A stretch of 63,998 nucleotides of DNA, filler included, from Jimgerdemannia flammicorona (GCA_003990765.1; 3 parts of 3 records of this genome joined end to end with filler, not necessarily neighbours in it), one strand, 5' to 3'. Counted from the whole stretch's first letter, positions 9,713 to 42,794 are shown. A program made the numbers and translations. Notes: generated by a model from the sequence alone, not told the origin.

Positions 9713-10879
9713 CATAGTTCTGTTCTGCTCTGTGGGTACCTCAGCTTGCATAGGAGATGACATATTCATGTCTATCTTTCTTCTGAGCTAAGACTGCTCC
9801 AAGTTCTATAGCACTTGCATCTATCTGCAGGATGAATTCTAGGTTCCAATCTGGTCTTCTGAGGATAGATACTTGGGTCAATCTGGTCTTGAGTTCATTG
9901 AAGGTTTCTTGGTATTCCTTGGTCTATTCAAATTTGGTCTCCTTCTTCAATAGCTCATAGATAGGTACTGCAATATTAGAGTATCCTTTGATGAACCTTC
10001 TGTAGTAGCTGGCCAGTCCAAGGAAGACATAGACTTCTATGGTTGTTCTGGGTCTTGGGTAGGTTACAACAGCCTCAATCTTCATAGAGTCTGTGTGGAT
10101 TCTAGTCTGATTGATGAGGTGTCCTAGGTAGGTGATTTCCTGAGCTGCAAACTTGCATTTCTTGGACTTGATGTAAAGGCCATACTCCTTGAGCTTCTTG
10201 AGGGCTAGCTGTATGTGATTGATATGTTTCCATGCAGTATTGCTGAAGACTCTATTCATTATTTACTAAAAACTTACTGGGACATTGCATATTCCAAATA
10301 GCATTCGCAGGTAGATATAGGTGTAATGAAGACTGATTTCTTACCGGCATCTTGAGTGAGACTAATCTGATGGAAGCCTGAGAACAGATCCAGGGTGGTG
10401 TAGTATTTGGCTTCACTTCTAAAAGTGGTGAGGATTTCTTGAATATTTGGCAAGGGCTGCCTATCCTTCTTGGTGATGGTATTGAGCTTCCTGTAGTCAA
10501 TACAGAGTCTTGGTGCAAACTCTCCAGGCTTGCTTCCTTTCTTTGGGGCAAAGATAATAGGTGAGGCCTAGGGGCTGATAGCTTGCTTGATAATTCTGGC
10601 TTCTTCCATTTCCTTGAGTTCTGCTTGCAGCCATTCTCTATAGGTGGTCTGACTTTCTGGTAGATGGGCTTGGTATCACCAGTGTCAACTTTGTGGTAGT
10701 ACTTAGGTTCTTGATTGTGGATATCTCTGAAGTCTGTAGCAAGTACTCCTTTATTCTGGTGCAGAATCTTGAGAAGTTGTTCTTCCAGGGGGAAGTTTTC
10801 TCCAATAGTGTATGTGTGCTTATTCTGGTCCTTGCCTTTCTTATGCTTAAGTTCAGTAATCTTGGTAGTGGCATAGGCT

Positions 10880-11300
10880 CCTCTTCCAGTAGATCCAAAG
10901 CCTTGTTCTCCTCTCTTAGTCTTGATGAGTTTGATGGCTTCTATGATCTTGGGCTTCTTGATTTCATAGATCAGTATCTGGTCAATCCTGTCATACTTCT
11001 TGACTTCGAATGGAGTAGTGGGGTTGTGATTCCTGACTATGAGAAAGATCTTGCCAGTGTAATCAGGATTAATTACTCCTCCTTCAACTGAGATTTTGCT
11101 TTTGGCCAGACTGCTCCTAGTCTTGATAATTCCAGCATGGTTTTCTGATAGCTTGACTCCAATTCCAGTGCTAAGTAGGGTAGTAGTCTGTGGTTTGAGG
11201 GTAGTATCTTGAATGCTGGCAAAGTCCATTCCTATGGCTCCTTCAGTCTTATATTCTGGGATCTTGGCTTTGGGGTGAAACTTCTTGACCTTGAGGGTGA
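10880..11300 (-). pseudogene. dUTPase domain of B1 pol
   Basis: AIGMDF, TRSSLA, GGVINPDYTG, DRI.Q and RGEQGFGSTG correspond to dUTPase motifs 1-5. Confidence 0.92.
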
Positions 11301-12799
11301 TGTCTGATTCTTGTTCCTCTTTATTATCACTGTCAGCCTGAAGCTCTGGGGGCTGGTCATCTTCTTCAGCTTTCTTTTTTGCTTTGGTGGCTTCTTGCTT
11401 GTGTTTCTGTTGGTGGATTTTCCTGACTTCACTAATATAGGACCAGCAGTCATTCAGGTGTTCAGAGTAGTACATCCTAGTACCATAGGGACATTTTCCT
11501 TGAGGGGTATAGCTATTGATGATCTTGTTGTACCACTGCTCATCTGTGAGCTTGGGTATCTTGTTTTTGTTCTTGTTCACCAAGTGCATAAAGACCTCTG
11601 TATCCTCTTTATCTCTTTTCTCTATGTCTGGTAGAACTTCTTTGTAGACATTGATAGAGACTCATATCTTTCTTCCTCTATAGTTGATCTGCATCTTCTG
11701 GGCATTGAGGTCAATGATGGCCTTGGCCTTGTAAAGCCATTGGTTGCTAATGAGGATGTCATAGTTGGTGGTACTTATAATAATCACATCTACTGAGATA
11801 GTAGCTCCTCCTATTTTGATGGAGACTTCTCGGATTTTGCCAAGGGGGGTAGCTCGTGTACCATCTGCTGTAACATAGACCATCTTGGCGAACTCTTCAA
11901 TATCCCAACCTAGGCAGTCAATTGCCTTCTTGCTCATAAGGCATCCTCCAGTACTGGTATCAATGATGGTATCAAAGATACAGTCTTCAATCTGACATGA
12001 GGTATAGGCTGATGTCTTATGCTGGTCTTTGGATTCTTCACCTAAGTTTTCAGATTCTTCCTATGCATTATGAGCTTCTACAATCTTGTACTCTTGATTC
12101 TTGGCAGTAGTTGTAAGTCCTACTCTTAACTGCTGTCTGAAGGCAGGGACTTTGGCTAGCTGTCCAAAGGTAGCATTGACCTTCTGTTCCTTGAGATTCT
12201 TGTAGATATCATACTGATGGATCTTGGTCTTGCACAGCTTCTGTTCCTTCTTACTTTTGCTTTCTTCTGAGACTGGAGTTATGTCTTTAATGATTTGGTG
12301 AGCAGCTTCATCTAACTCCATATCTTGATCAATCTCCTCAGGTTGGGTCTTACTTTGAATAGTGACAGCTGGGGTCTTCTTTGGTCTTCCAACTGGCTTG
12401 CTGTTGCTCTTCTTATCATAGAGCTTGGACTGGGTTCTGGTACCTTCAGTAGCAGGGTAGAATTTGAGCTCCTTGTAGTATTCTTCATCATTAGTGTCAC
12501 CAATCTCCTCAATGACTACTGCATTGGTTTGTTCTCTAGTTCTGCTAGCATTGCTTGGTTGGGCTTTGTGTCTTGTTTTGATCATACAATTCTTTGCATA
12601 GTGGCCTTCTTCTCCACATCTGAAGCATGTGATATTGTATTCTTCTATAGTAGCTGCAAATCTCTACACTGGTCTTCTGTTAGCACTTCAGACTTCTCTA
12701 ACAACATCACCAAGGTGTACAGTTATCTTGGCGAACTGCTTGGTGAGTTCTTCTACTGGGTCAGCTTTGGCTGCCTTGGGTAGTGCTCCAAATGAGTCA

Positions 12800-13120
12800 A
12801 TTCGAATCAAATCCGGATTCGATTCATCACATGACAGTTTGATCCAAATCTCAAATCCAAAGCCATCTGAATCAACTCAGATTAATCTGAATCACCTCAT
12901 CTGAATCACCCCATCTGAATCACTCATCCAAACCACCCCAATCTAAATCACTCAATTCAAATCACTCAATTCAAATTACTCAATCCAAATCACTCAATCC
13001 AAATCACTCAATCTGAATCCTCCAATTTAAATCCTCCAATTCAAATCCTCTAATTCGAATTCTTCAATCTGAATCCTCATCCAAATCCTTCAACTGAATC
13101 CTTCAATCCAAATTCTCCAT
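12800..13120. repeat. hAT left subterminal repeat array (~13-14-bp ATCYRAATCACTCA units)
   Basis: Direct inspection. A shorter related cluster lies at ~19150-19270. Confidence 0.85.
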
Positions 13121-13399
13121 ATGACTCATATGCCAGATACATCTATAATACAATATATATACATATATATAATATATACACATACATACACATGTACATG
13201 CAAACATGTAAACACACATATCAATAGATCAGTCTTCAACAGTTCACAGTACTGATGATACTTCAAGTTAAATATCTCTGATAGTTCCACACCTTCCATG
13301 CAATCCTTGCTCTGAAATCTGGCAACATTGTGCTAAGATAAGAGATGATGTTGTTTGTAATTATTGCAGATAAAAAATTAAGATGTACCTATTGACACT

Positions 13400-15826
13400 T
13401 TTTGTTTGTTTTGATACACACATAATATTGTTTCATCTACCCCCATGAACTACACTAGCCAGAAGTTCAAAATGCTTAGGTATACAACTTCGAATATGAA
13501 TCAATATATAAAAGACAAGTACTCTGACAAAATCAAAAAGAACATAGAGACAAATAAAATTGACATCCAAGCTATAGTGAGTATGTTTATCTGATTGCCT
13601 GACCATTTCTGTACCAATAATGCCATTTAATCAAAAATATTTAGCCATACTCTTTGGCAGAATTTTGAAATCAGCTCATTCACTGGATTGTGTGCACAGA
13701 CCAGCTATTCACAACCATCAAGAGTGATCAATTGCATAGCATCTTTGGCCTCCTCAAGCATGATTTATATTTGCCAAGTGCTGATACTATTTACAAAGAT
13801 GTCCTGAAGGTCTATAGAAAGGAGCATGACAATCTCCACCAGATACTTCAGATAAAATAAGAGCAGTACCATGACCTTTGCAAGCTGAATTATATAAAAG
13901 AGCTCACCAATTTAACCTCACATTCAATAAGCAGAATTTGGCAGACAAAATTTCATTTATGATCAATACATAGACATCCCCCAATGCAATTTCATTTCTG
14001 GGCATTACTGATTATTGGATTGACCTCAATTGGCAACTTAAATCTCTCACCCTTGACTTTGTCAAACTTGCTGGCCCTCATTCTGGAGACAACATCGCAG
14101 ATGCTTTTATTAGTTATATCCAGGAGCTTAGGATCACCACTAAGGTAAAAAAGGGGGGCTTGCCATCAGATTGGCATTTTGAGAGAGGTCCTAAACCAAA
14201 CTAGATTTTATTAGTTATTTATTTTCACATAAATTCGCTGACCGAATATTTCAAGTATAGATTTTGGCCATTATGACAGATAATACCACAAATAACTCAA
14301 CATTTTTCAAAGTTTTAGCAGCCAGCCTCAAACAGAAAAACATGGCCTTCAGTACAGAAAGCTACTGTGTATGATGCCAGGCCCACATACTGAACCTCAC
14401 TGTTCAGGACTATCTTACACACATAGACAAAACATCCAAGAGAGGAGGGGCTCTGAGTATAATTTCCAAGCTGTGCAACCTAGTTGTGTTAGTCTGATCA
14501 TCCCCACAATGATGAGACAAATTCGCTATGTAGTGTAGGGCAATCAGTTTAGCCCTGAAAGAGCTTATATTGGACATCTGTATGCATTGGAACTCAACAT
14601 TTGCAATGATCTAGCATGTGCTGGAGTTTGCTGTGGCATGCATCCTTTTTTTCTTTAGTCGGCTGAAGCAACTTGTTTCAGATAATTGAAGATTTATTTT
14701 TAAAAAAAAAAAAAAACTAAAAAAGCCAATAGATTCAATAGTGGCTGCCAACAAGAAAATATAGGCCAAGGCTCTAGGTGAAAACAAGTGAGATGTACTT
14801 AGGAATATTGTCAGAGTTTTGGAAATAAGTGGTGATTGCTCTGGCTCCACACTCATTTTGTCAGCCTCCACACTTATTTTGTCTACCTCCATACAATGCA
14901 ATATCTCACCACATATAACTGCCAGTGTTTCAACAATTGTATGAAGGATATAGTCAAACAAATGACCCCAACAATAAGCTCAGCAATACCAGTATACAAC
15001 CTTCTGATTGACCAGCTAGAGGACAAGCTTGAGGATAGACTGGAGGGTTGTGGTGATTTATGGTTGAGCCTGGATCAGAGAGATGCCATGGAGGTTGCTC
15101 TTAGCAAGCTCAGAAAGTACTACTCTCAAACAGATACCACCATATACTCAATTAGTACAGGTATATCAATGTCAGTGTATGGCTGTTACTCCTTCCAAAA
15201 CAGAGAAACCCTCACAAAAACTCACTCTCTCCTCTTCTTTGAACAGTGCTGGACCCATGCTTAAAGCTATAATACCATAAAGATCAGGGCTGAGAGCAGT
15301 ACTTCATTGAGAGAACCAAGCAGACCATAATCGAAGTATACTAGAAAAACTACATGCCACTACAAGGTTCTGGCTGAAGTCTGGATGAATATGCTGAGAG
15401 ATCCCTCCCATCCCACATTTACTTCAGCAGAAAGAGGAAGAGAGAGCCATCAGTGGAAGAGCTGCCATCAATAGATGAACTTACTATTTACCTCACCAGC
15501 GACCATGTGATCTTACTAGAGGGTGCAGAGATGCTCAACTGGTGGAAGGTGGGTTGTCAGGTGAGTATTGGGCCAATTTAACCCACCAATCTAACCACCA
15601 CTCTATCCACCACTCTATCTACTGGGGTGTGCAGCTGTGTCAAATGGACTTCTTCAGCCTATATAACATGGCTTGGGACTATCTGGCAATTCCTGCCTCC
15701 AGTGCTCCCATCGAGTGGGTGTTCTCAGTTAGGGTAGACCTTGTTGCCCCAAAGAGATATACACTGAATACTGAGACAATCTGGGTCTGTATATGTCTGA
15801 AGTCTTGGTGGAGCTCAGGCTGCTAA
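13400..15826 (+). pseudogene. Intron-containing hAT transposase
   Basis: Decayed BED-finger tail TTSNMN, then WIV.TDQ.F, ISF..N.*TSPN..SFLGIT.YWID, GPHSGDNIA, TDN..NN, C.AHILNL, HWNST, and hATC DYLAIPASSAPIE.VFS. GT-AG introns lie between the blocks. The start is approximate. Confidence 0.9.
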
Positions 15827-15939
15827 AATTTGGTGAGTCCTGGGGGTTTGCAGATAAGTTGGTTGGCCTTGTGGAATATTTAATACCTTTCAAAAAAAAA
15901 TAAAAAGGTAAAAAACCCTGAGGACTTGGCTTGGAGTTT

Positions 15940-16712
15940 GCAGCCCAAGTGGGTAGTGGTTAGTGGAGTTGGCGGCAGTGGTGGAGGGAGTGTGCAATAT
16001 TTGTGGCCCTCTGTCAGCAGCAAGGGATAGCCCCAAGCTGTCAGTGCCCAGGTCAGTGGATAGGTCAGCAGAGAGAGCATGCAAAATTTGTGGCCCTCCA
16101 CCGGCAGCAAGAGACAGCTCCAAGCCACAAGTGTCTCAGTCGGAAGAGTTGGCAGAGAGAGTGCACAAAACTTACGGCTCTCTGCCAGCAGTGAGGGGCA
16201 GCCCCAAGCTGTCAGCACTCAGGTTAGTGGGCAGGGTCAGTTGGTGGGGTTGGTGGGCACAGGGTCAGCAGAGAGAGTGTGCAAAATTTGTGGCCCTCCA
16301 TCGGCAGCAAGGGACAGCTCCAAGCCACAAGTGTCTGGGATGGGTGGGGTAGATAGAGGGAGCATACAAAATTTGTAGCTCTCTGCTAGCAGCAAGGGAC
16401 AGCTCCAAGTTGTCAGTGCCCAGGTCAGTAGGCAGGGTCAGTTAGTGGGATTGGTAGACATAGGGTCAACAAGGGAGCATGCAAAATTTGTGGCCCTCCA
16501 CTGGCAGCAAGGGGCAGCCCCAAACCACAAGTGTCCAGGATGGATGGGGCAGGTGGAGGGAGTGTACAAAATTTGTAGCCCTCTACTAGCAGTGTAGGGG
16601 CAGCTCCAAGCTACCAAGAAGTCTGGGGCAGAGGGTGCTTCTGGCAGTCAGAGAGTGCTTCTGGTAGTTGGAGGGTGCTTCTGGTAGTTGGAGGGCATTT
16701 CTGGCAGTCAAA
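15940..16712. repeat. GC-rich tandem repeat (~7 units of ~90-120 bp) plus a 20-bp repeat, between the two convergent hAT genes
   Basis: Recurrent GCAAAATTTGTGGCCCT..GCAGCAAGGGACAGCTCCAAGC, then GAGGGTGCTTCTGGYAGT four times. Confidence 0.88.
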
Positions 16713-16899
16713 GTTCACCACAGATTCAGGCCCCATTGCCAGTTCAGGTCCCATGGGCACTCTGGCCCTACATCATAGTGCCGCACCAGCAGCACTACAG
16801 AGCAGAGCTAAGGGGCCAGTAGGGCCCTGCATAATGGCTAAGCTAGTACTACAGAAGAGGTACCTGACCCAACCCCCTACATAAGACTGCCCAATCCAC

Positions 16900-18900
16900 A
16901 CAAAATGACTGCCTAACCCTTACAAAAGATTGCCTATCCCTCATAAAAGATTGTCTAACTCTCACAAAAACTGCTCCACCTACCAGTCCCAGGCCTTGAT
17001 GAGCCTATCATCTGTTGTGAGTACAATGACTATTGTGTCTGAGCTCTCCTTGAAGGTGATGGTGCCATAGTGGTCATGTAGTTGGAAGAGGATGGCCATG
17101 TTGACCACAAACAGGACCCTGAAACTATAGGTGAGATCATACCAGACTCCACCACTATCCTCCCAGGTTGGGCCCTTCCTTTCCAGGATATAAAACATTA
17201 CTGGGGTAATATTGTTATCTATATATATGGGTAGAGAAAGGTTGCACCTAATATATCCTAATGTGATATGAGCATATAGTTGGGTGAACTCTTGGCCCAG
17301 AATCTCATACTGCCAGGCTATACTGGTGGATACCTGTTCTTAGTCCAGCCCCAGAAGCTCTGGCTTGGAAACCTGCCAAAATAGATGACAACTGGTCAGT
17401 CTTTTTTGTGTGTGGGGGGGCAGAAACCCCCTAGGCTACAGAAACCCCCTGGGTCGCAGAAACTCTCTGGGCTGCAGCACCCCAAAAAAGTGGAGCTCCT
17501 CACCTCATATGGCACACTAAATTGTGCCAAGAATGTACATACAGCTATATCAAGATCACCACCAAGCTGGTCTGCTATATGCTCTACTAATCTACTCAAA
17601 GAACCCCAGATCATAGCCACCATCACTATATAGGCTGTGTTGTGCTTATGTGCAGTTTGCTCTTTGATGGTACTTCTAAAGTTCCAGTAGAGATACAGAA
17701 TCTTGTGCATCCCAGGATTTGTATCAAAAAGAGTATGTCAGTAAAGAGTGTAATTTATCTAGGGAGGAGTAAAAAAAAAGAGAGACAAGTGTGGGGGATT
17801 TCGGAACTTCAGAACTCACCCTTTGCCAGTGTTACAGTATACCCAATTCCTGTCCAAACTCCCCCTCTTTGCTTTTTTCACCCCCTCTTTCCTGCCACCT
17901 GATATTTGACACAATCCTTGCAAATCTCATTGATATGGTGGTGAAGCTCATTGCCATAGAGGTTCCTTATCACCATCACAACCACCTCTCCACATTTATT
18001 AATAAAGATATAGTTCTCTTCATTGTTGGTTACTCCTGCTGGCCAATGGACTCCTTGGTCAAGAACAATTAACTCTAATTCGAATATAGACCCCCAAGCC
18101 TTGATGATGATGCTGGTACTGCTTATGCTGAACATCTTCCCCTCAAATTTCTCTATTTGATCAGATGCCAGATATGGTTGAACTTGGATAACTTTGAACT
18201 CTCCTTTCCAATAGAACTGAGCCCTGATCTGAGGGACCGAGATAAGTATACAGATAGGTTGTATGTAGATAGGTTGCATGTAGATGGGTTGTATGTAGGT
18301 GAGTTATATGCAGGCAGGTGGTATGTGGGTATGGGTGTTTTTTAGGAGGAGACCACATAAAAAATGAAATTAAATAAAATATGGTAAGTGAGTGAGCTGC
18401 ATGCCAATGAGTTGCATGCTGATGAGTTACACGAGTTGTACAAGATTGCTCACAAAGGCTTGCTTCTATTCCTTTTGAGACCTCTGCCATATGATGTATT
18501 GACTCAACAGCTCAGCCACCAAAGGCATGCCCTGCAACATCCTCCAACCTTTCTTTATCTTGACCAGATATTGTGAATAAAGTTGGTAGATCTCATCATA
18601 GAGCTGTGGACCCTAAGAAGAGCATGAGGTAAATCAGATTGTGCTGGGGAAATTTAAACAAGTAAAAAGTAGCAGCAGAAAAGAGCAACCTACATCTACT
18701 ACTAGCTGCTTCAAAAAGGCTGCCACATATATAGCTATGAGGTCTGTGAATTCTGAGGTCCAAAAGGCCACCATGAGTTGTTGCCAGAATTCATCCTCAT
18801 CCCTGCCATCGCCATCACCATCACCACTGCCATCACCCCTTTGGCTCTTGATGAGCAGCTTGTATGCTGTCTATATGAGAAAAATCTAACATTGTCAGCA
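16900..18900 (-). pseudogene. Multi-exon passenger gene, putative TET/JBP-family 2OG-Fe(II) dioxygenase
   Basis: Exons read YIFINKCGEVVVMVIRNL..GGVWTGIGYT, LYWNF..AMIWGSL, and NLSLPI[Y<H]ID..GGVWYD.TY.FRV..ILFQ..DH[Y<H]GT..IVLTTDDRLIKAW. GTGAG donors and CTGAC..AG acceptors are present. Ends are approximate. Confidence 0.6.
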
Positions 18901-19957
18901 GAGAGTGCATTTCCACCTCAAATACTCCCTCTTTTAACAATTATTACAGGATGAAAAATGAGTAAACTGGACCAATATATGAATTAAGGGCTGCTGTTTT
19001 GTTTGCTTGTGATGTGGCAGGAAAGAATAAAGAAAAAGAACAAAGAAAAGAGAGAGAATAAAGGAAAGAGTGAGGTCACTAAAGTGTAGCAGGAAAAAAA
19101 AAAACAAGAGTGAAATAAACAAAAGAAAGAGTGATATCACCAAAGATTTCAATCTGGATGGATCAATTCAGATTAATCCAGATCAATCCAGATCAGATCA
19201 TGAGACCATCCAAGTTGATTTGAATCAATCATATGACGAACCTGAATTGAATCTCATCTGGATCAACTCCATTCATTCAGAGCACTAGCCTTGGGAGTAG
19301 GTGGGGTTGGTTGTCTGTTTATAACTGTGACAGGTATGATACTAGTTGGCTTTAATGGCTCCATCTTGATGTCAGTTATTTTCTCTATTGAATATTCAGC
19401 AGGGTGTCTGGTAGTCCAATATCTCTGTGCAAAGACCACTTTCTGATCAAGGATCAGTGCAGCTGGAGTGAACTAGATTGCTAGGGCAATTTCAGAGTGA
19501 ACTCCTTTGAGGAAGATTGAATCTGCTATTTGTTTCTTAAGGGTATTATCATAGCCAGCCAGGATAATCTGGTGGTAGATTTGAATATAGAATGAGTTGG
19601 GATCTTCACTAAGTCTCTGGCAGATAGTATTGAGTTGATCCTTGAGAGCTTGCTTGATCTCTTCAGTATAATATGTTGTTCTGAAGAAGGCCTTCATGTT
19701 AGCAAGTTTGGCTCACCAGCATCAGCAATAGTGACTGTATTGAATATATCTCTGATAGGTCCTCTGAGGCTGACTGGTAGAAGGGCCAATTGAGCATCCA
19801 TACCAAGGGCTCATATGGTGGCGAATTGTTCAAAGTCTTCAATGAAGGTCAGGATTGACTCTTCAGTAGTATATCTATAGAATGTGGGGGGACACATTTC
19901 CATCTTGTCTTGAATTCTTATAGGGGTAACTCTTGTAGTCAGGGTAGTTGTTGTGGG

Positions 19958-20000
19958 TAGTGCTCCTAATGAGTCAATTTAATTCGGATTGAATTCAGAT
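19958..20000 (+). mobile_element. Left end of a second, related hAT element, interrupted by Copia
   Basis: TAGTGCTCCTAATGAGTCAATT matches the TIR at 12781 and breaks B1 at the point equivalent to 42717. Confidence 0.85.
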
Positions 20001-21349
20001 TGTTGAGATTTCTAGCTAATCAACTCGGTATGTAGCTCACGTGAAGGTGGCGCAGCTCACGTGTGAGGACGTCATCAGTGGAAACGTCATCAATGCGTAA
20101 ATACGCGCTTCGCGCATATCAATAAAGATTGCTCCTTTATCCCTCAAATTCCAGTATTTCACAATAGGTTATGAGCCCCGGTTAGTGGCTAACCAAAAAC
20201 ACCTCTTTAATATATGCTACACTACTCTACGCGCAAAAGAGATGTCGAATACGCCAGGGAGTCCCTCGGCGGGTGCCGGAATGGGTACCGGAACGGGTGC
20301 CGGAACGGGTACCGGAACGGGTACCGGAACAGCCCCAGCGGCAACTACTACGACCGTCACGACGATGTCAATTCCAGCCCCAGCGGCTATTACGACAGTG
20401 CAAATGTCCAAGAGGTCCATCCCTGTCTTCGACGGGAAAGATTACGCAATCTGGGCCTATCATATGAAGAATCTCCTTATCGAATGTGGCTTGGCGGACT
20501 ACTGGAAGCCGCAAGCACAGATTACGGGATACAATATCACTAACGACGAGAGAGCCTTACGCGAGATTACGTTCACACTATCTAATGCATAACTGAAACA
20601 CGTCATCTACGCTATAACAGCAAACGAAGCCTGGGAGATCTTACGCGATCTATACCAAAAGGACTCCGCCTCGAACAGATTCCACTTGAAATAGCAACTA
20701 TTCAGCCTACGGATGAAGTCCAAGGAGATGATCCGTGAATACGCCGATCGGGTTGACGAGCTGACGAATCACATTAACGCTCTAAGTGCACTAGCGGATT
20801 ATGTCAAGGATGACGACAAGGTCCTGGCCCTTACACGTGGCCTTCCCGAGGCATATAATATCGTTGTCATCGCGATGAGGGAGAGCGGTAAGCTTTCGGA
20901 CTACAAACACATGATAACGAGCCTCCAGAATGTGGAATCTCAGGCACAGGAGAACGACGATGACGAAAGAGCACTCTACGGCTCGCGTGGACGAGGCAAA
21001 AAGCAGCGCAAGGGTCAACACGGCAAAAGCCAGCGCGACAAAAGCCAGCAAGGCCAAGACCAATCAGAGAAATTCGACGGGAGCTGCTATTATTGCAGCA
21101 AGTATGGACACCGTGTGAATGAATGCATGAAAAAGGAAAAGGACAAGGGTGGAAAGAAAGGAAAGAGTGGCAAGCAAGCGAATAGCGCAGATTCTAATGC
21201 CAATAAGGGAGGATTGTTCTTCGCCGATGTAGATTCGGACCCTTTTGGACCGGTGAAAAATGCGCAAGCCACCCCGACATCTACGAGATCTAGTTCTACA
21301 TCCACCAGCGCCAGTTCTACCTGCAAATGCGCTTGCTCGACATCTACGG
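20001..21349 (+). mobile_element. Young Ty1/Copia element: 5' LTR (20001-~20166), PBS and gag, cut by an assembly gap
   Basis: TGTTG start, ...CAATA end, then GGTTATGAGCCC (Copia-type PBS). CpG-rich. Confidence 0.88.
20242..21349 (+). pseudogene. Copia gag (UBN2-like region and CCHC knuckle)
   Basis: FDGKDYAIW..MKNLL, EAWEIL..LY, LTRGLPEAY and CYYCSKYGHRVNEC. Two stops, TAA at 20590 and TAG at 20692. Confidence 0.88.
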
Positions 21350-21449
21350 NNNNNNNNNNNNNNNNNNNNNNNNNNNNNNNNNNNNNNNNNNNNTTAATTA
21401 ATTAANNNNNNNNNNNNNNNNNNNNNNNNNNNNNNNNNNNNNNNNNNNN
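21350..21449. other. Assembly spacer N44-TTAATTAATTAA-N44
   Basis: Six-frame-stop linker inside an N run, identical at 42795. Confidence 0.97.
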
Positions 21450-23097
21450 TTTTTTAAACTCTTTCTTTTATAATAATAACTAACTGACTGATTGATATTT
21501 ATTTACTTAAATTATAAAGATATTTATATATATTAGCTAACTATAAGAATAATATAAAATAAAAAGATAAGAGTTGATAATAGAATAAAGAGAATAATAT
21601 AAGAAATATGTATAAAGTTATAGAGCTTTAGACTACTAGTAAGATTGTAAATATAGATATTATAATAATTAATCTCTCTCAAATATAAATACTATAACTA
21701 TCTAGTAATCAATCTTACTATCTAATCAGCTATCTTACTATATCTTTAGAAATAAATACTATTATCTATTTAAGTTATAGATCAGAGATAACTTATTGAA
21801 ATAAAGACTATAAAATAAAGATAATAAATATTCTATAAATATCAAATATAATATAGAGATAAGATAAATATAGATAAACTATAGAGATATATAAATAAAG
21901 AGAGAAATTAATACTAAATCAAATCTTAGACATTATCTTAGTTTGAGAGAACATTACTAGTTCTTAACTAATCTAGATATATCTTCATAGTCTCTATCAG
22001 AAATAGATATCAGAGATATAGAGATATATTTTTTTAAGTTTTTTCAAAAGAAGATAGAGTAGATAAAATGATCTATAGATAGTATTCTGATCAATTATCT
22101 TTTATAATATATTTTAAACTAAGAGAGATCTATAGATAGATAGATAACTGATAGATTCTAGATCTTGAGCTAGAAACTTCTTCTAATTCAAATTAGTAAT
22201 TATCTTTAGAAATTTCAAAATAGAAAGATTTCTCAGTAACTTTTACTGAGAGAAAAATCTCTTCTTCTAATATTAGAAGCTCAGATACTTACTAGTTAGA
22301 TTTTTATATAATATAATAGCTAGGGTAATTAATTGAGTAATATATAGCTCAAGTAGCTTCTTATAATACTTTATAATATAGTTTTTTAAAAAAAACCTCT
22401 ATAATACTTATATATAAGATAGTCTTATTGATTATCTTAAAGTAATATTTAGATATATAAGATAGTATAATAGTTTACTTTTACTATTATGATAATTATA
22501 TTCTCTAAGTTAATAATTTTTAGTATTAATAACTTAAAGATACTTATATCAGATATCTTTAGCTTGAAGAAGTGACTGTCTTAATACCTAAGTACTATCT
22601 ATTATACTTATAATTGATCTAGTCTTCTTCTGATAAACTATAATAAATCATTATATACCTATAAGTTACTGAAAATTCTGACAGAAATTCTGACAGAAAT
22701 TTCTATAGGAATTCTTATAGAGTTTCTAACTAGCAGTTATAGTTATCTAAAATAATATAAATATATATAAATATATTTAGTATATTATATTTAGTTATAA
22801 CCTTAAATATGTATAAATACTATCTATACTGAGTATATTGTAACCTCAGCTCTACTTTTCTCTCTTAAGAATAAATCAGTATTCTTATCTAAGAATCACC
22901 AGACCTAACTTATTAATGATTCTAAGTTTGATTAACTTGAGATACAAGTATAGTATTTTTTTTATATTCTATCAAAAGTAATACTTGGATAAGACTTATA
23001 CTATAGATACTTTGGAACTTAGTATTTTCTCAAAAACTCAGAACTTAGAGCTAATAGTCACTATTGACTATCTGTAATATATTAATTCTATAAATAT
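21450..23097. other. Extremely AT-rich decayed repeat tract, origin unassigned
   Basis: Near absence of CpG, TpA excess and no ORFs. Confidence 0.6.
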
Positions 23098-23683: not shown

Positions 23684-26600
23684 ATGGATATGAGACCACC
23701 AGTATTCCATAGATATACCTCAGACAAATCAATCATGACCTTCATTGATGATTTCGAACAGTATGCCACTGTAAGAACCCTGACAGCAGTACAGCAAGTA
23801 GCCCTCATGCCCTTCAGCCTATGAGGTTCTACCAGAGCAGTATTTACAGCCGCAACCTATACAGGAAATGATACCAATGCTATACTGACAGCACAGAAGA
23901 CCTGGCTCCGTAATACATATTATACAGATGAGATCAAGCAAGCCCTGAAGGATCAGCTCAATACAACATGCCAAGAAATGAGTGAGGATCCAAACACATT
24001 CTATATTAGAATTCGATATCAGATAATCCTTGCAGATTATGCTACTACTATCCAAGATCAAGTAGCCAAAGTAACCTTTATGAAAGGAGTCCATTTGGAA
24101 ATAGCCATGGCTATCTGCTCATCACCAGTGATTCTGGATTTGCCACAGAAGGTCACCTATACTCAGCGATACTGGATAGCTAGACATCCACAAGACCATA
24201 CAATGGAAAGGGTCACGGGAGTCAAAATTGAAGCACCCAAGGCAACCAGTGTGATCCCTACCACAATGATCAATCGAAACACACCTCAGCCAAAAGCTAC
24301 AGAGCAGCAAAAGAACAGTGACCCTATGGAGGAACTCACCAAAAGGTTTGCTGAAATGACTGCCCACCTGAGAGATGTGGTAAAAGAAATCTGAGAAAGA
24401 GATTGCTGCCCTATTCAGAAGTTTGCCACCACCTCAGACAAGAAGAAAGGTACCTGCTACAGCTGCAGAGAAGAAGGCCACTACTCCTATGAATACATGA
24501 GCAAAACCAAGTGCAAGGCTCAACCAAGCAATGCCACATGAAACAAGGAGCAGGCCAATATAATCACCTTTGAAGAAATTAGAGAATCTGATGAAGAGAA
24601 ATGGGAGGCCTATCCTGCTCAGACCACTAAGAAGGATGGTCACAAAGAACCCTACAAGAGACTGCTAGGAAGACCCAAGAAGAACCCAGTGGAAAAGCAG
24701 ATGGAAACTGTCACAGAAAGCCAAGCTGAAGAGATGGACCAAGATACAGAGCTGGAGCAAGCAGTTCAAGATATCATCTGAGGAACCACTCCAGCCAGTG
24801 AAGGAGAAAAAGAAAAGAAGCTTCACAAGACCAAGACCTTCAAGTTAGATATCTTCAAGGACCTCAGTCAATAAAAGGTCAATGCAACCTTTGGTCAGCT
24901 CATAGAAATCCCAACATTCAGACAGCAAATGAGGTTTGGACTTACCGAAACAACTAAGGAATAAGGATGGAAAATAACTGAGGCCAATAATGCTCAAGAG
25001 GACTTAGGAGAAAAAAGTGAGGACAATTGCAAAACCTCTGCATATGCAACATGCCAAATCGAAGATAGAATCTTTGAAGCCATCATCGATACAGGAGCAG
25101 GAGGGTGTCTCCTCAGTAAGAAGGCAGCAGACCACCTAGATTGGGATGTGGAAGAAGCAACTAAGCTGGTATTCATCACAGCTGATGGCACAAGAGCCAC
25201 ACCTCTGGGAAAGATCTGAGATGTTCCCATTAAGATTGGAGGAGCAACTATCCCAGTAGATGTAATTGTAACCAACGCCACCAACTATGACATCCTCATT
25301 GGCAATCAATGGCTTCACAAAGCCAAGGAAGTAATTGATCTCAATGCTCAGAAGATGCAGATCACCTACCGGGAACAGAAGATACAAATTCCCATCACTG
25401 TCAACAAAGGAGTCCTGCCTGATATGGAGGAAGAAGAGAGTGAGTAAGAGGAAGCTTATATGGTGACTACTCCAAAGAAGAAGAAAGTTGGATGGATAAG
25501 TGAAGAAGAATGGTACAAGAAGATGGCAGAAGGCTATGCACTACAAGGAGTCTGTTCTCATGGGATCAAGATATACTGTATGGAGCATGTCAATGATTGC
25601 TACCAGTGTACTATTGGAATCAGGAAGATCCACCAGGAAAGAAGGCAGAAAGCTCTTGAAAAACAGATCAGGAAAGAAGAGAAGGAGGAAGATAATGAAC
25701 CACCAGCTCTCCTGGAGGACAGTGATAATGAAGAAGAAATCAAGGTCAAGATTCGAAAGATCCACCCTGATGCAGTCTTGCCAGAATACAAGTCAGAAAA
25801 TGTAGCTGGAATGGACATCGCTACAGTAGAAGAGACTGTACTGGAACCCCAGACAACTACCCTACTCACAACTGGACTGGAGATGACCATCCCAAAGGAT
25901 CATGTTGGGATTCTCAAGACAAGAAGTAGCCTGGCTAGAAGTGAAATCACAATCAAAGGAGAAGTCATCAATTCAGACTATACTGGAGAAATTCTACTCA
26001 TTGCTAGGAATCACAATCCTACAATCCCATTTCCAGTCAAGAAGAAGGACCAATTGGCACAAATGTTGATCTTTCCAATTCTACAACCAAAGATCATAGA
26101 AGTTAAGAAGCTGGAGGAAATAAAAAGAGAAAAGAAAGGATTTGGATCCACAGGAAGAGGAGTATTTGCCAGCACCAAGATCACCGAACTCGAGCATAAG
26201 AAGGAGGAAAACACAAGCAAGCACAGCTACACCATCGGAAAGGAATTCCCACTCAAGAAAGAACTCAAGAAAATACTCCACAAATTCAAAGATATTCTTG
26301 TCATAGATTTCAAGAATATCAAAGGAAAGACCCCACACTACTATTATGAAGTAGATACTGGAAATACTGAACTAATTTATCAGAAGGCAAGATCTGTCCT
26401 GCCAGCCTACCAAGAATGGCTCAGAGAAGAAATCAAGCAGATGGAAGAAGCTGGTATCATTAAAGAAGCCAGCAGCCCCTGGTCCTCACCTGTTGTACTA
26501 GCCCCAAAAAAGGGCAGCAAGTCTGGAGAATTTGCCCCAAGACTCTGTATTGACTACAGAAAGCTCAACATGGTTACCAAAAAGGATCGCCAACCACTGC

Positions 26601-27676
26601 CCCTCATCAATGACATCCTCATAATACTGGGAGACGAAGCACAGTACTACAGCACTTTGGACTTATACTCAGGATTCCACCAAATCGGACTCACAGACAT
26701 GACAAGTGAAAAGTCAGCTTTCATCACCCCAGATGGAACTTACGTCTACCTACAAATGCTATTTGGAATGTGCAATGCACCAGCAAGTTTTCAGTAAATG
26801 ATAAACAAAATCTTCTGCTATGATATGGGAAGATGGATGATGGTCTATGTTGATGATGTAATCATCTACAGCCAGACACCAGAAGAATACCTATAGCACA
26901 TCCGGTAGATAATGGAAAGACTGAGAGAGCATGGCCTATACATCAAGCCCAAGAAATGCAAATTCGCAGAAATTGAGATCTCCTATCTTGGCCACATTAT
27001 CAACCGAGATAGAACACATACAGACCCCCTCAAGATACAAGCAGTGGCAGCATACCTAAGACCCACCACTGTTACAGAAGTCCAAACCTTCATGGGACTT
27101 GCCTCCTACTATTGCAGATTTATTAGAGGATTTTCTAATATTGCAGGACCAATCTACGAACTTAACAAGAAGGATATCAAGTTCCAGTGGACTGGCAGAC
27201 AACAAAAAGCATTCGATGAACTCAAGGTCAGACTGACCCAGGCACCCATCCTCAGAAGACCTGACTGGACTCAAGAATTCATCCTATAGACTGATGCAAG
27301 TGTACAAGGACTAGGAGCAGTCCTAGCTCAAAAGAAAGATAAAGTGGAGTATGTCATTGCATACCTCAGCTGTGGAACTTGAGGAGCTGAAAAAGAATAT
27401 GAATCCTACAAGTTGGAATGCCTCACAGTCATCTGAGCCATAGAAAAGTTCCACTACTACTTGGCTGAGAAACACTTCACTATTCAAACAGACCACTCAG
27501 CTCTCACCTGGCTACTGACAACTGGACAACCCAAAGAAATCTATGTCAGATGGATAATAAAGTTGCAAGCTTATGATGTAACCATTGTACACTGCTCAGG
27601 AAGAACAAATTCCAATGCAGATGCCCTCTCATGGATACCCTGAACTACCTCCAACCAACAAATCAATCATGAATAA
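23684..27676 (+). pseudogene. C gag-PR-dUTPase-RT-RNaseH, single frame
   Basis: CYSCREEGH knuckle, IIDTGA, dUTPase at ~25740-26160, LCIDYRKLN, VYVDDV, *TDAS and NADALS, all in one frame with transition stops. Confidence 0.92.
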
Positions 27677-37449: not shown

Positions 37450-40400
37450 TTATATAGGTTTGTGGTCCTTCTTGAGTCTGTTCCTGTGTACCATAGTAGG
37501 CAGTATAGTCCCTGAGATTTTTCTAAACCAGAAGGTAGTTTTCTTAATATCTTGCACATAGAAGGGTTCTTCCCATTTGGGCTCCAGTTTTCGTGACCAT
37601 GAGGCTTCTATCATATTTCAATACAGTAAAACCTTTTCTCCGATTCAGATGGGTTCTAGGGCCTTGTGATTCTTTTCTGCATTCTTCTTTGTCAGCACTT
37701 GTGACTTAGTGATATAATCTTCAGCTTTCTTTCTGATTTGGTATAGTCTCCAGATTTCTGCATTAATCTGTCTCCAAGTTAGGTCTAGATTTGTGGCTGA
37801 GGTTCCATCAGAATCTTCTTCTCTGAAGAGCAGCTCTCTTGGGGTAAAATGTGTGCTCTGTGACCATATGTCTCATAGGACAGAGAGGGCAGTTGGGAGA
37901 TAGTTATCCTAATTCTCATATGTCTCTGAGATCTTTGCTAGGATGTTCTTGAGGGTCTTATTGGTTCTCTCTATCTGTCCATTTCCTTAAGGGTGGTATA
38001 CAGTGGTCTTGATGTGCTGGATCTTGTATTTCTGATATATTATCTCATGGAATCCATTGACAAATTCCATTCTACGGTCTGTTGTGATTTGCTTTGGTGT
38101 CTTGTAGTAGCAGATGATTTCTTGGTATAGGAAGTTGGCTATAGAGAGGGCATTGGCTTCTTGTAATGCTTCTGCCTCTATCCATTTGGTGAAGAGGTCT
38201 ACAATAACTATAATATAGCAGTTTCCTGATAGTATTACTGATAGTGGTCCAATGATATTCATTGCGATGTGGTGGAAGGGGATAGGCTCAATTCTTGATG
38301 ACCCAGGTGTCTGGTCTTGCTGATATTGTTTCTGTTTTTGGCACTTGTCACACCCTTTGACAAATTGGCACAAGTCTTCTTCCATCTTGGGTTACTACAT
38401 GGTTCTTCTTACCTTGTCATATGTATTGGTTCCTCCTAAGTATCCTTGCTCATGTACTTCCTTCATTACTTGATACTTCTTGTGTTTGGATATTACTAGC
38501 TTTCCTCCTTTTCTGAGTGTAGTGTTGTCTAATTCAAACTGTTTCCAAGTCTGGTTGATGATGGTGATTGTCCAGGGTTCAAGGTGGTTGGATATCTTCC
38601 GCTGCCCAAGATAGCTAATTAATCCATAGTATAGCTCCTTATTTATATTGAATAGTCTTGATGGGGGTGTTTTGGGGTGTCCTTGAGAGTGCATCAGCAT
38701 TGGTGTTGGTCTTTCCTGAGCAGTGCTTGACAGTACAGTCATACTCTTGCAGCCTGTAGATCCATCTGGCATATATTTCTTTGGGGTTCAGAGTGTGAAA
38801 TAGCCAGGCAAAAGTAGAATGGTCTATTTGAATGGTGAAGTATTTCCCGGCTAGTAGTAGTGGAACTTGTCTACTGCCCAAACTACTGCTAAGTATTTAA
38901 GCTTGTATAACTCATAGTTCTGTTCTGCTCTATAGGTACCTTGGCTTGCATAGGAGATGACATATTCATATCCATCTTTCTTCTGAGCTAGGACTGCTCT
39001 AAGTCCTATAGCACTCATGTCTGTCTGCAGGATGAATTCTAGGTTCCAGTCTGGTCTTCTGAGGATAGGTGCTTGGGCCAACCTGGTCTTGAGTTCATTG
39101 AAGATTTCTTGGTACTCCTTGGTCCATTCAAATTTGGTCTCCTTCTTCAGTAGCTCATAGATAGGTGCTGCAATGTTAGAGTATCCTTTGATGAATCTTC
39201 TGTAGTAGCTGGCTAGTCCAAGAAAGGCATGAACTTCTGTGGTTGTTCTGGGTCTTGGATAGGCTGCAACAGCCTTGATCTTTATGGGGTCTGTATGGAT
39301 TCTGGTCTGGTTGATGAGGTGTCCTAGGTAGGTAATTTCTTGAGCTACAAACTTATATTTCTTGGGCTTGATGTAGAGACCATGCTCCTTGAGCCTCTTG
39401 AGGGCTAGCTGTATGTGATTGACATATTCCCATACAGTGTTACTGAAGATGATCATATCATCAACATAGATAAAGAGCTATTTTCCAATCTCATTGCTGA
39501 AGACTCTGTTCATCATTTGCTGAAAACTTGCTGGGGTATTGCACATTCCAAATGGTATTCGCAGATAGATATAGGTGGCATCAGGTGTGATGAAGGCTGA
39601 TTTCTCACTAGCATCTTGAGTGAGACTGATCTAATGAAAGCCTGAGAACAGATCCAAGGTGGTGTAGTATTTGGCTTTGCTTCCAAGGGTGGTAAGGATT
39701 TCTTGAATATTTGGCAAGGACTGCCTATCCTTCTTGGTGATGGTATTGAGTTTTCTGTAGTCAATGCAGAGTCTTGATGCAAACTCTCCAGGCTTGCTTC
39801 CTTTCTTCAGGGCTAGGATAATGGGTGAGGCCCAGGGGCTGATAGCTTGCTTGATGATTCCGGCTTCTTCCATTTCCTTGAGTTCTGCTCACAGCTACTC
39901 TCTGTAGGCAGGTGGTATGGGTCTGGCTTTCTGGTAGATAGGCTTGATATCACCAGTGTCAACTTTGTGGTAGTACTTGGGTTCTTGATTGTGGATATCC
40001 CTAAAGTCTGTAGCAAGTACTCCTTCATTCTGATACAAGATCTTGAGAAGTTGTTCCTCTAGGGAAAAGTTTTCTCCAATGGTATATGTGTGCTTGTTCT
40101 GGTCCTTGTCTTTCTTATGCTCAAGTTTTGTAATCTTGGTAGTAGCATAGGCTCCTCTTCTAGTAGATCCAAAGTCTTGTTCTCCTTTCTTGGTTTTGAT
40201 AAGTTCAATGGCTTCTATGATCTTGGGCTTCTTGATTTCATAGATCAGCATCTGGCCAATCCTGTCATACTTCTTGACTTCAAAGGGGGTGGTGTGATTG
40301 TGATTTCTGACTATGAGGAAGATCTCACCAGTGTAATTAGGGTCAATTACTCCTCCTTCAACTGAGATTTTGCTTTTGGCCAGACTGCTCCTGGTCTTGA

Positions 40401-42663
40401 TAATTCCAGTATGGTTTTCTGGCAGCTTGACTCCAATTCTAGTACCAAGTAGGGTGGTGGTCTGTGGTTCAAGGGTAGCATCTTGAATACTGGCAAGGTC
40501 TATTCCTATGGCTCCTTCAGTCTTATATTCTGGGATCTTAGCTTCAGGATGAAACTTCTTGACCTTGAGGGTAATGTCTGATTCTTGTTCCTCCTCATCA
40601 TCACTGTTAGCTTGAAGCTCTGGGGGCTGATCATCTTCTTCAGCTTTCCTTTTTGCTTCAGCAGCTTCTTGCTCATGTTTCTGTTGGCAGATTTTCCTGA
40701 CTTCACTGATATAGGACCAGCAGTCATTCAGGTGTTTGGAGCAGTACATTCTAGTACTATAGGGGCATCTTCCTTGAGAGGCATAGCTATCGATGATCTT
40801 GTTGTACCACTGCTCATCTGTGAGCTTGGGTGTCTTGTTCTTGTTCTTATTCACCAAGTGTATGAAGACCTCTGTGTCCTCTTCATCTCCTTCCTCCATA
40901 TCTGGTAGGACTCTTTTGTGGACATTGATAGAGACTTGTACCTTTCTTTCTCTGTAGTTGATCTGCATTTTCTGAGTATTGAGGTCAATGATGGCCTTGG
41001 CCTTGTGAAGCCATTGGTTGCCAATGAGGATGTCATAGTTAGTGGTGCTTGTAACAATCACATTTACTGGGATGATAGCTCCTCCTATCTTGATGGGGAC
41101 TTCTCAGATTTTGTCAAGAGAGATAGCTCATGTATCATCTGCTGTAACATAAACCATCTTGGTGGACTCTTCAATGTCCCAATCTAGGCAGTCAATTGCC
41201 TTCTTGCTCATGAGGCATCCTCCAACATCAGTATCAATGATAGCATCAAAGATACAATCTTCAATCTGATAAAGAGTATAGGCTGATGTCTTGTGCTTAT
41301 CTTCAGATTCTTCACCTGAGTTCTTGGATTCTTCCTGTATATTGTGAGCTTCTACAATCTTGTACTCTTGATTCTTGGCAGTAGTTGCAAGTCCTACTCT
41401 CAACTGCTGTCTGAAGGCAGGGACTTCAGCTAGCTATCCAAAGATAGCATTGACCTTCTGTTCCTTGAGGTCCTTGTAGATGACATACTAGTGGATCTTG
41501 GTCTTATGCAGCTTCTGTTCCTTCTTGCTTTCACTTTCTCCTGAGACTGGAGTAGTGCCTTCTATGATTTGGTGGGCAGCTTCATCTAACTCTATGTCTT
41601 GATCAATCTCCTCAGGTTGGGTCTTGCTTTGAATAGTGACAGCTGGGGTCTTCTTTGGTCTTCCAACTGGCTTGCTTTTGCTCTTCTTGTCATAGGGCTT
41701 GGACCAGGTTCTGGTACCTTCAGTAGCAGGGTAGAATTTGAGCTCCTTATAGTATTCTTCATCATCAGTGTCACCAATCTTCTTGATGACTACTACATTG
41801 GTTTGTTCTCTGGTTCTGCTAGTATTGCTTGGTTGGGCTTTGCATCTTATTTCAGTCATATAACTCTTTGCATAGTGGCCTTCTTCTCTACATCTGAAGT
41901 ATGTGATATTGCATTCTTCTGTAGCAGCTGCAAATCTCTGCACTGGTCTCCTGTTGGCACTTTGGACTTCTCTAACAATATCACTAAGGTGTGCAGTCAT
42001 TTCAGTGAACTGCTTGGCAAGTTCCTCCACTGGGTCAGCTTTGGCTATCTTGGGAGTAGGTAGGGTTGATTGTCTGTTTATGACTGTGGCAGGTAAGATA
42101 TTAGTTGGCTTTGATGGCTCCATCTTGATGCCAGTTATTTTCTCCATTGAGTGTTTGGCAGGGTGTCTGGCAGTTCAATATCTCTGTGCAAAGACCACTT
42201 TCTGATCAAGGGTCAGTGCAGCTAAAGTAGACCAGATTGCTAGGACAATTTCAGAGTAAACTCCTTTGAGGAAGATTGAATCTGCTATTTGTTTCTTAAG
42301 GCAGTCATCATAGCCAGCCAAGACAATCTAGTGGCAGATTCAGGTATAGAATGAGTTGGGATCTTCACTAAGTCCCTGGCAGATAGTATTGAGTTGATTC
42401 TTGAGAGCTTGCTTGATCTCTTTGGTATAATATGTTATTCTGAGGAAGACCTTCATGTTGGCAAGTTTGGCTGCACCAACATCAGCAATGGTGGCTGTAT
42501 TGAACTTGTCTCTGGCAGGTCCTCTGAGGCTGACTGGTAGAAGGGCCAATTGAGCATCCACACCAAGGGCTCATATGGTGGCAAATTGTTGAAAGTCTTC
42601 AATGAAGGTCAGGATTGACTCTTCAGTAGTATATCCATAGAATGTAGGGAGATGCATTTCCAT
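37450..42663 (-). pseudogene. B2 gag-pol (PR, dUTPase ~40160-40575, RT, RH; IN in shifted frame)
   Basis: ORF-track fragments carry the canonical motifs. Confidence 0.92.
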
Positions 42664-42794
42664 CTTGTCTTGAATTCTTACAGAGGTGACTCTTGTAGTC
42701 AGGGTAGTTGTTGTGGGGGTTGTTCATTTTTCAGCTTGAAAGTGAGGGATTTGTCTTGAATCACCAGCCAATGGGCACCAAGTTGTCATATAGT

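Follow-up and report, generated by a model that had tools for sequence, protein, structure and literature searches.

The window examined here, a 63,998-nucleotide stretch of DNA from Jimgerdemannia flammicorona (three records of GCA_003990765.1 joined with filler), contains a decayed hAT transposon that carries, in addition to its transposase, the remains of a second gene on the minus strand. This passenger gene, which probably encoded an Fe(II)-dependent dioxygenase, is the main subject of the current study. The transposon occupies 12781-19289 (6,509 bp) and is recognizable as an insertion because both of its flanks match a second Gypsy copy elsewhere in the window: 11600-12780 aligns with 40874-42054 (88% over 1181 nt) on the left and 19290-19957 with 42049-42717 (91% over 669 nt) on the right, with the Gypsy homology breaking off at both edges. 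The empty site is represented by the uninterrupted Gypsy copy (42015-42090), which contains a single ATCTTGGG at about 42047-42054. At the occupied site, the junction alignment with this copy places identical 8-bp target site duplications (TSDs) of GCCTTGGG at 12773-12780 and 19290-19297. The left terminal inverted repeat (TIR; 12781-12803, plus strand) starts with TAGTGCTCC directly where the Gypsy homology ends at 12780 and mirrors the right end, ..GAGCACTA, and the right TIR (19267-19289, minus strand, ..TCATTCAGAGCACTA) was placed from terminus alignments, such that the termini of the element read TAGTGCTC. YARNG is the TIR consensus of the hAT superfamily, and the short TAGTG... / ...CACTA repeats conform to it, as does the 8-bp TSD to the superfamily. 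From this single insertion, one could also read a 7-bp TSD with one extra G at the right end, at the expense of the TIR symmetry. The plus-strand transposase is decayed into many short frames between 13415 and 15826, the last of which (within 15479-15826) encodes the C-terminal hAT dimerisation domain Dimer_Tnp_hAT (PF05699; E 6.9e-9, 35.8 bits against a cut-off of 21.4). Pfam scans of the open reading frames (ORFs) of the element detected no transposase domain other than Dimer_Tnp_hAT, and the ORFs upstream of it contain hAT-like wording that, by eye, may correspond to the catalytic core. A preliminary description of this locus, made from the sequence, had already proposed a TSD-bounded hAT, and the duplications, TIRs, empty-site Gypsy copy and dimerisation domain all bear this out.

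Downstream of the transposase, the minus strand of the element contains three stop-free stretches in three different frames, located at 16980-17339 (119 aa), 17396-17737 (113 aa) and 17878-18303 (141 aa). With the 119-aa stretch as query, HMMER was run exhaustively against 1.84 billion proteins (representatives) and recovered five proteins at E <= 0.001, referred to as P0001-P0005. The best match, P0001 (136 aa), exhibits 67% identity at E 1.3e-49, followed by P0002 with 43% identity (E 9.9e-22), and P0005 is a full-length relative of 374 aa. A further search with P0005 as query added P0006. When P0005 was compared with the window by tblastn, its order was kept across the three frames, with residues 92-167 matching at 18042-17818, residues 167-227 at 17713-17504 and residues 254-337 at 17312-17061. 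Furthermore, a metagenome scan with a 5-row alignment yielded two loci, L001 and L002, from 23 pattern matches. L001 is an intact homolog with a coding sequence split over exons, the introns of which have GT..AG ends, and two introns of the window gene match those of L001 in both position and phase (GTGAGT at 17819 and GTGAGG...CAG at 17503-17373). A third intron, preceding the '..R.QF' exon, can be read from both sequences. The relatives themselves belong to clusters of only unnamed or "hypothetical" metagenomic proteins. The cluster of P0003, which is the exon-3 product of an L001-type homolog, has 28 near-identical members from many metagenome contigs, pointing to an element present in multiple copies in an AT-rich soil eukaryote.

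These comparisons permit the minus-strand gene to be divided into at least three exons. Exon 1 (17820-18228) encodes the N-terminal strands, a helix and the GGVWTGIGYT loop; it is supported by the tblastn match to residues 92-167 of P0005 (E 1e-10) as well as by the family alignments and follows an acceptor cag at 18231-18229. Intron 1 (17719-17819, phase 1) has a GTGAGT donor and a degraded acceptor and is found in L001 at the same position and phase. Exon 2 (17504-17718) encodes a helical insert, GMHKILYLYWNF...FSVPYE, and is matched in tblastn by residues 167-227 of P0005 as well as by P0006, its start at 17718 being inferred, as the acceptor now reads caa. Intron 2 (17373-17503, phase 0; GTGAGG...CAG) likewise has its counterpart in L001. 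Exon 3 (16962-17372) encodes the catalytic half, in which the HxD and distal-His positions are located, and shares 67% identity with P0001 over 132 aa (17363-16968); it is bordered by an acceptor cag at 17375-17373 and ends with the terminal TGA at 16964-16962. An additional upstream exon at 18466-18612 is tentative, as it was recognized by eye from ..YLVKIKKGW, comparable to ..RKLKKEF of L001 and ..HLKAKF of P0005; this candidate has no tblastn match at E < 1 and no intact donor site. The passenger gene and the transposase are placed tail to tail, with about 1.1 kb between their ends. Judged from the sequences compared, the minus-strand gene inside the TSD-bounded hAT is a real spliced passenger gene that is convergent with the transposase. 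The preliminary description had identified this arrangement correctly, including the existence of the three stretches, and its reading of the exons requires correction in that the stops at 17340-17342 and 16980-16982 were missed and exon 3 begins further upstream, at 17372.

A central proposal of that description was that the two histidines expected to bind iron are both represented by TAT codons. Both codons are present on the minus strand exactly as described. The first (17223-17225) now encodes Tyr at the position of the His of HxD in relatives and is one C>T step from CAT, while the second (17067-17069) encodes Tyr at the distal position, where the alignments of relatives have the His of HG[ST]. 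At the first position, His is found in P0001, P0002, P0003, P0005, P0006 and L001. The first ligand motif accordingly reads PTHTDNN or THVDED in relatives versus PIYIDNN in the window, and the distal motif LHGT or PHGS versus HYGT. The homologs, which have His at both sites, bear out the proposal that both Tyr codons derive from His. Throughout the 12-row alignment of the family (A5), intact members keep the HxD His, T-P-V, R-x-G, GG, Y-G, N and the distal HG[ST]. The complete H-x-D...H triad is present in P0001, P0002, P0005, P0006 and L001, and P0003 has H-x-N, whereas the window copy has Tyr twice. A candidate 2-oxoglutarate (2OG)-binding Arg is located about 20 residues past the distal His in P0005, P0001, P0002 and the window (DDRL).

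The window copy is dead. Both iron-binding histidines have become tyrosines, at least one splice site is degraded (the intron 1 acceptor, now caa), CpG dinucleotides are nearly gone throughout the element, and three in-frame stops interrupt the minus-strand reading frame: a TGA in exon 1 (17878-17880; Lys in relatives), a TAA in exon 3 (17340-17342; aligned to Glu of P0001) and a TAG near the C-terminus (16980-16982; Trp in P0001). Over 132 ungapped residues, 43 differ from P0001, which is a relative and not the ancestor of the window copy; expressed as single steps towards the window, these include 17 C>T, 15 G>A, 4 T>C and 1 A>G. The codon comparison shows a strong GC-to-AT bias in the window copy, which includes both His-to-Tyr changes. 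The gene has an observed/expected CpG ratio of 0.06 and the transposase one of 0.09, compared with 1.15 in an adjoining young Copia element, and the CpG decay is uniform across the transposase, the spacer and the gene. By our own reading of the codon list for part of exon 3 (17030-17110), of the 17 differences from P0001 that are of the C>T type, 11 precede A (CpA to TpA) and 5 precede G. If this CpA count is real, the decay would not have been purely CpG-driven, with the caveat that the ancestral codons are unseen.

To place the encoded protein, two AlphaFold2 models of P0005 were built from alignments of 9 and 12 rows, and each was compared with 48,161 chains in a wide structural search that was independent of Foldseek. 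For model 1, the top-ranked chain was the TET protein NgTET1 (5cg8_A; Z 10.0, root-mean-square deviation 4.2, 193 aligned residues), which was also the sole row at Z >= 8, and TET2 and CcTet followed at ranks 5 (Z 7.2) and 17 (Z 6.6). With model 2, NgTET1 was again ranked first (Z 9.5, root-mean-square deviation 4.4, 174 aligned residues), with TET2, CMD1 and CcTet at ranks 13, 20 and 21. In both lists, nearly all of the function-named rows were Fe/2OG oxygenases. A double-stranded beta-helix Fe/2OG dioxygenase fold is therefore well supported by the models, and kinship with TET/JBP proteins is moderately supported as the best reading of them. The TET sub-class is tentative because in model 2 a bacterial prolyl hydroxylase follows NgTET1 by less than 1 Z unit, and membership in TET/JBP is something we infer, as both models are of low confidence and the second essentially ties these two enzymes. 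Among protein clusters in the Atlas, the matches of which serve as leads only, the top one (0.96; 209 of 256 features; Basidiomycota) includes members with PF20515 2OG-FeII_Oxy_6 at a share of 15%, and the cluster at rank 11 includes members with Tet_JBP at 16%. The preliminary description had assigned the gene to the 2OG-Fe(II) double-stranded beta-helix of TET/JBP proteins; the predicted fold and the first rank of NgTET1 in both searches agree with this, and the assignment to TET/JBP itself was not accompanied by a profile match. Its proposed structural comparison had a similarly divided outcome, with NgTET1 at the top and CcTet within the top 50 of the wide searches, and with little from Foldseek. 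Its caution regarding the distal 2OG-binding Arg proved well founded, given the behavior of this residue across the family alignment (see below).

Based upon these features, we consider it probable that the window preserves a fossil two-gene hAT (12781-19289) whose passenger encoded a double-stranded beta-helix Fe(II) dioxygenase with TET/JBP proteins as its nearest structural relatives, likely functioning in 5-methylcytosine (5mC) oxidation. In the active ancestor, a plus-strand hAT transposase would have been arranged tail to tail with a gene of three or four exons, the product of which, a protein of about 370 aa, would have been an Fe(II)-dependent dioxygenase of the double-stranded beta-helix type. 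By analogy with the TET transposons of rust fungi, this enzyme most likely would have oxidized 5mC on the DNA of the element itself, which in turn may have relieved methylation-based silencing and slowed methylation-driven C-to-T decay. A number of results weigh against such an interpretation. Neither Tet_JBP (PF12851) nor any other 2OG profile of Pfam matched the 10 window ORFs or 5 relatives at E <= 1, or the 12 rows of the family alignment at E <= 10, so that the profile comparison suggested by the preliminary description was negative for the window pieces and intact relatives alike; the L001 exons produced no relevant Pfam row either. Nothing relevant was found in PHROGs, or among PDB sequences when queried with two single pieces and one family profile (E <= 10). 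Model confidence is low, with a predicted local distance difference test score (pLDDT) of 49.0 and a predicted template modelling score (pTM) of 0.54 for the 9-row alignment versus 45.6 and 0.46 for the 12-row alignment, which indicates that the three added rows did not improve the model. Foldseek returned nothing from the PDB at E <= 0.001. The 2OG-binding Arg is not fixed at one alignment column, being shifted in P0006 and missing in L001 and P0003. Eight family motifs that we judged diagnostic were all absent upon exact look-up across the whole of Table S1 of a recent survey of transposon-borne TET/JBP genes (PMC12730594). Finally, a single full copy of this hAT could be analyzed, and the gene is accordingly no more than a presumptive regular part of the family.

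As an alternative, the passenger may have been a non-TET Fe/2OG oxygenase, either prolyl-hydroxylase-like or AlkB/FTO-like, which would have acted upon protein or upon alkylated or N-methylated bases rather than 5mC. The best Foldseek rows are PHD2 and P3H1, both 2OG oxygenases (E 6e-3 and weaker), and the followers of NgTET1 in model 2 are close, as the bacterial prolyl hydroxylase (8.8), vCPH (8.4), P3H1 (8.1) and FTO (8.0) are all within 1.5 Z of it; the missing Tet_JBP match points the same way. We still regard a non-TET enzyme as unlikely, as NgTET1 came first in both of the wide searches and led by 2.3 Z in model 1 with the longest coverage except for TET2. Moreover, the order of motifs fits that of the PU-type TET domains when compared by eye with entries of Table S1, including the G-x-[MLY]-x-x-[IA]-G-[FWY] loop, a helical insert ending in ..N.P.F, H-x-D, GG and a distal H, and the same survey presents TET/JBP proteins as the only dioxygenases reported inside fungal DNA transposons (PMC12730594). 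A separate issue is whether the gene was ever a regular part of this hAT family, or was instead captured once or brought in by another element nested within this particular copy. A one-off origin would be compatible with the single full copy, with the 3.7-kb contig of L001, on which there is no hAT transposase, and with the likeness between the end of that contig and the hAT terminus being not significant in blastn. Nevertheless, we find such an origin quite improbable. No TIR/TSD pair surrounds 16900-18900 within the element, and the pairs detected in a scan for inverted repeats (70-78%) do not exceed chance level; the uniform CpG decay is what would be expected if the transposase, spacer and gene arrived together; and the published TET-carrying hAT7 families are stable two-gene hATs (PMC12730594). 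The notion that the stop-free stretches never constituted a gene and are frames that arose by chance within decayed repeats has practically no prospect of being correct. It could appeal to the window pieces on their own, for which there was no Pfam match (10 window ORFs), no match among PDB sequences, no lead in the Atlas (141-aa piece, best score 0.89) and no significant hit among the 44 and 51 candidates retrieved for the 119-aa and 141-aa pieces, respectively, when proteins were searched by words, but it is refuted by the E value to P0001, the colinearity with P0005 over three frames and the conserved intron positions.

The fossil two-gene hAT also has to be viewed alongside the systems already described. 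According to the survey, TET/JBP genes reside inside complete elements of seven DNA transposon lineages of the rusts (Pucciniomycetes), namely hAT7, Dileera, IS3EU, PHISTA, EnSpm, ESTA and Helitron, and the proposed role of the rust transposon TET is escape from both methylation silencing and C-to-T hypermutation (Kojima 2025, Biology 14:1741, PMC12730594). Of these lineages, hAT7 is described as comprising twenty families in six Puccinia species (PMC12730594). The pairing of a hAT with a TET-like dioxygenase is thus already in print, first for rust fungi in 2025 (PMC12730594), and the statement in the preliminary description that it was undescribed does not hold. Full-text literature searches for a hAT with TET in fungi retrieved no further paper besides this one. 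The hAT7 transposons of Puccinia parallel the window element in that they belong to the hAT superfamily, reside in a fungal genome that is rich in repeats and undergoing CpG decay, and have a second gene that is TET/JBP-like and has the H-x-D...H triad (PMC12730594). However, the hAT7 TSD is 7 bp rather than 8 bp, the hAT7 consensus sequences compared from Table S1 start with CAACGGTGGGCC or CAGCGATGGGCA in place of TAGTGCTC, and in three hAT7 families the gene has the same orientation as the transposase and is located upstream of it, whereas in the window it is downstream and convergent (PMC12730594). Judged on TSD and termini as given there, the window element would lie outside hAT7. The dioxygenase of the window is also far more divergent and is comparable with the PU-type domains only in motif order (PMC12730594). 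By eye, this order agrees in a strand, a helix, a G-x-x-x-x-G-[YFW] loop, a long helical insert, H-x-D, GG and HG[ST], and some of the PU-type domains of Table S1 have, likewise by eye, His at the site corresponding to R/H-x-G-x-S-x-Q (PMC12730594). Of two further motifs, LHGT occurs three times in Table S1, the two occurrences shown being PE-type Zisupton domains, and WYDL five times, those shown being AG-type Kyakuja domains (PMC12730594). In the Kyakuja-Dileera-Zisupton (KDZ) elements of Basidiomycota, the survey describes the transposase as moving together with the TET/JBP gene (PMC12730594). Unlike KDZ elements, the window element has a hAT transposase, and Pfam identified no KDZ transposase beside the dioxygenase gene within 12781-19289.

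Among proteins of known structure, NgTET1 (5cg8), TET2 (9hxv), CcTet (7vpn) and CMD1 (7cy4) are top or high structural matches of the P0005 model and have the same order of H-x-D and distal His. The window family differs from them in having 8-13% identity in the structural alignments, no sequence-level match, low-confidence models and the unfixed 2OG-binding Arg. One possible, although doubtful, view is that P0005, P0001 and L001 represent an unrecognized fourth type of transposon-borne TET/JBP-like dioxygenase that is invisible to Pfam, absent from the survey of PU, AG and PE types, and carried by a canonical hAT with an 8-bp TSD rather than by hAT7. Its members share conserved introns and come from two or more eukaryotic sources that differ in composition. 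Within such a fourth type, the unfixed Arg may leave room for a co-substrate or chemistry other than the usual one, as in CMD1.

Demethylase-carrying transposons are a direct countermeasure to genome defense, and to our knowledge, fungi are the only place where they are known to be common. Provided the TET/JBP kinship is correct, the window element would extend the published list by a second hAT lineage and a highly divergent family of dioxygenases. This in turn suggests that distant types escape the published survey, for which a single Puccinia TET served as the seed (PMC12730594). The fossil copy appears to have lost both of its iron ligands to the same C-to-T decay that the enzyme is thought to counter, and being a fossil, it offers no functional test itself.

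Additional features of the transposon are found in its noncoding portions. Tandem Repeats Finder detected subterminal short repeats on the left (12865-13117), consisting of 14-nt AATCACTCAATCCA-like units, and a 200-nt tandem repeat of 2.7 copies (16063-16612) is located between the transposase and the dioxygenase gene. The 200-nt repeat is 54% GC and shares the spacer between the convergent genes with two arrays of 20-21-nt units (16629-16974). On the L001 contig, the ORFs downstream of the gene could be assigned to no Pfam family and matched nothing in the window. The end of that contig (3480-3640) contains GATTTGA-type short repeats followed by ..GACTCGTTGGAAGCTCATCA, which by eye recalls the subterminal repeats and terminus of the window hAT; the candidate terminus was rejected as evidence, as it was missing from the blastn output at E <= 0.1 (word size 7). 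Also rejected was a match of DDRLIKAWD to Tako8 and coatomer among PDB sequences, a single WD-repeat-like likeness attributable to chance.

The right Gypsy flank is followed by a second terminus of the same hAT family (19958-19979, plus strand), contained within 26 nt at 19954-19979 that are 96% identical to 12777-12802. Its likeness to the left end of the first copy is lost after about 20 nt, the terminus (TAGTGCTCCTAATGAGTCAATT) comes after a different flank (GTTGTGGG), and a young Copia begins downstream of this truncated copy at about 20030. Because of this second terminus, the hAT family can be considered repeated in this genome, and together with the full element it shows that the family inserted at least two times within 7 kb of the same Gypsy element. 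The wider window is a nest of retroelements, in which Pfam scans of 45 long frames detected pieces of Gypsy-type protease, reverse transcriptase, RNase H and integrase as well as Copia gag. The old elements have observed/expected CpG ratios of 0.04-0.09. The young Copia-type element extends over about 20030-21450, with a gag match at 20695-21348 and the CpG ratio of 1.15 mentioned above (over about 20030-21340), and two masked runs of N are located at 21350-21393 and 21406-21449. Lastly, four Gypsy-type pol frames (10252-11661, 25448-26797, 39895-41103 and 57341-57874) encode a dUTPase domain between the protease and the reverse transcriptase, with E values of 1e-25 to 1e-27.

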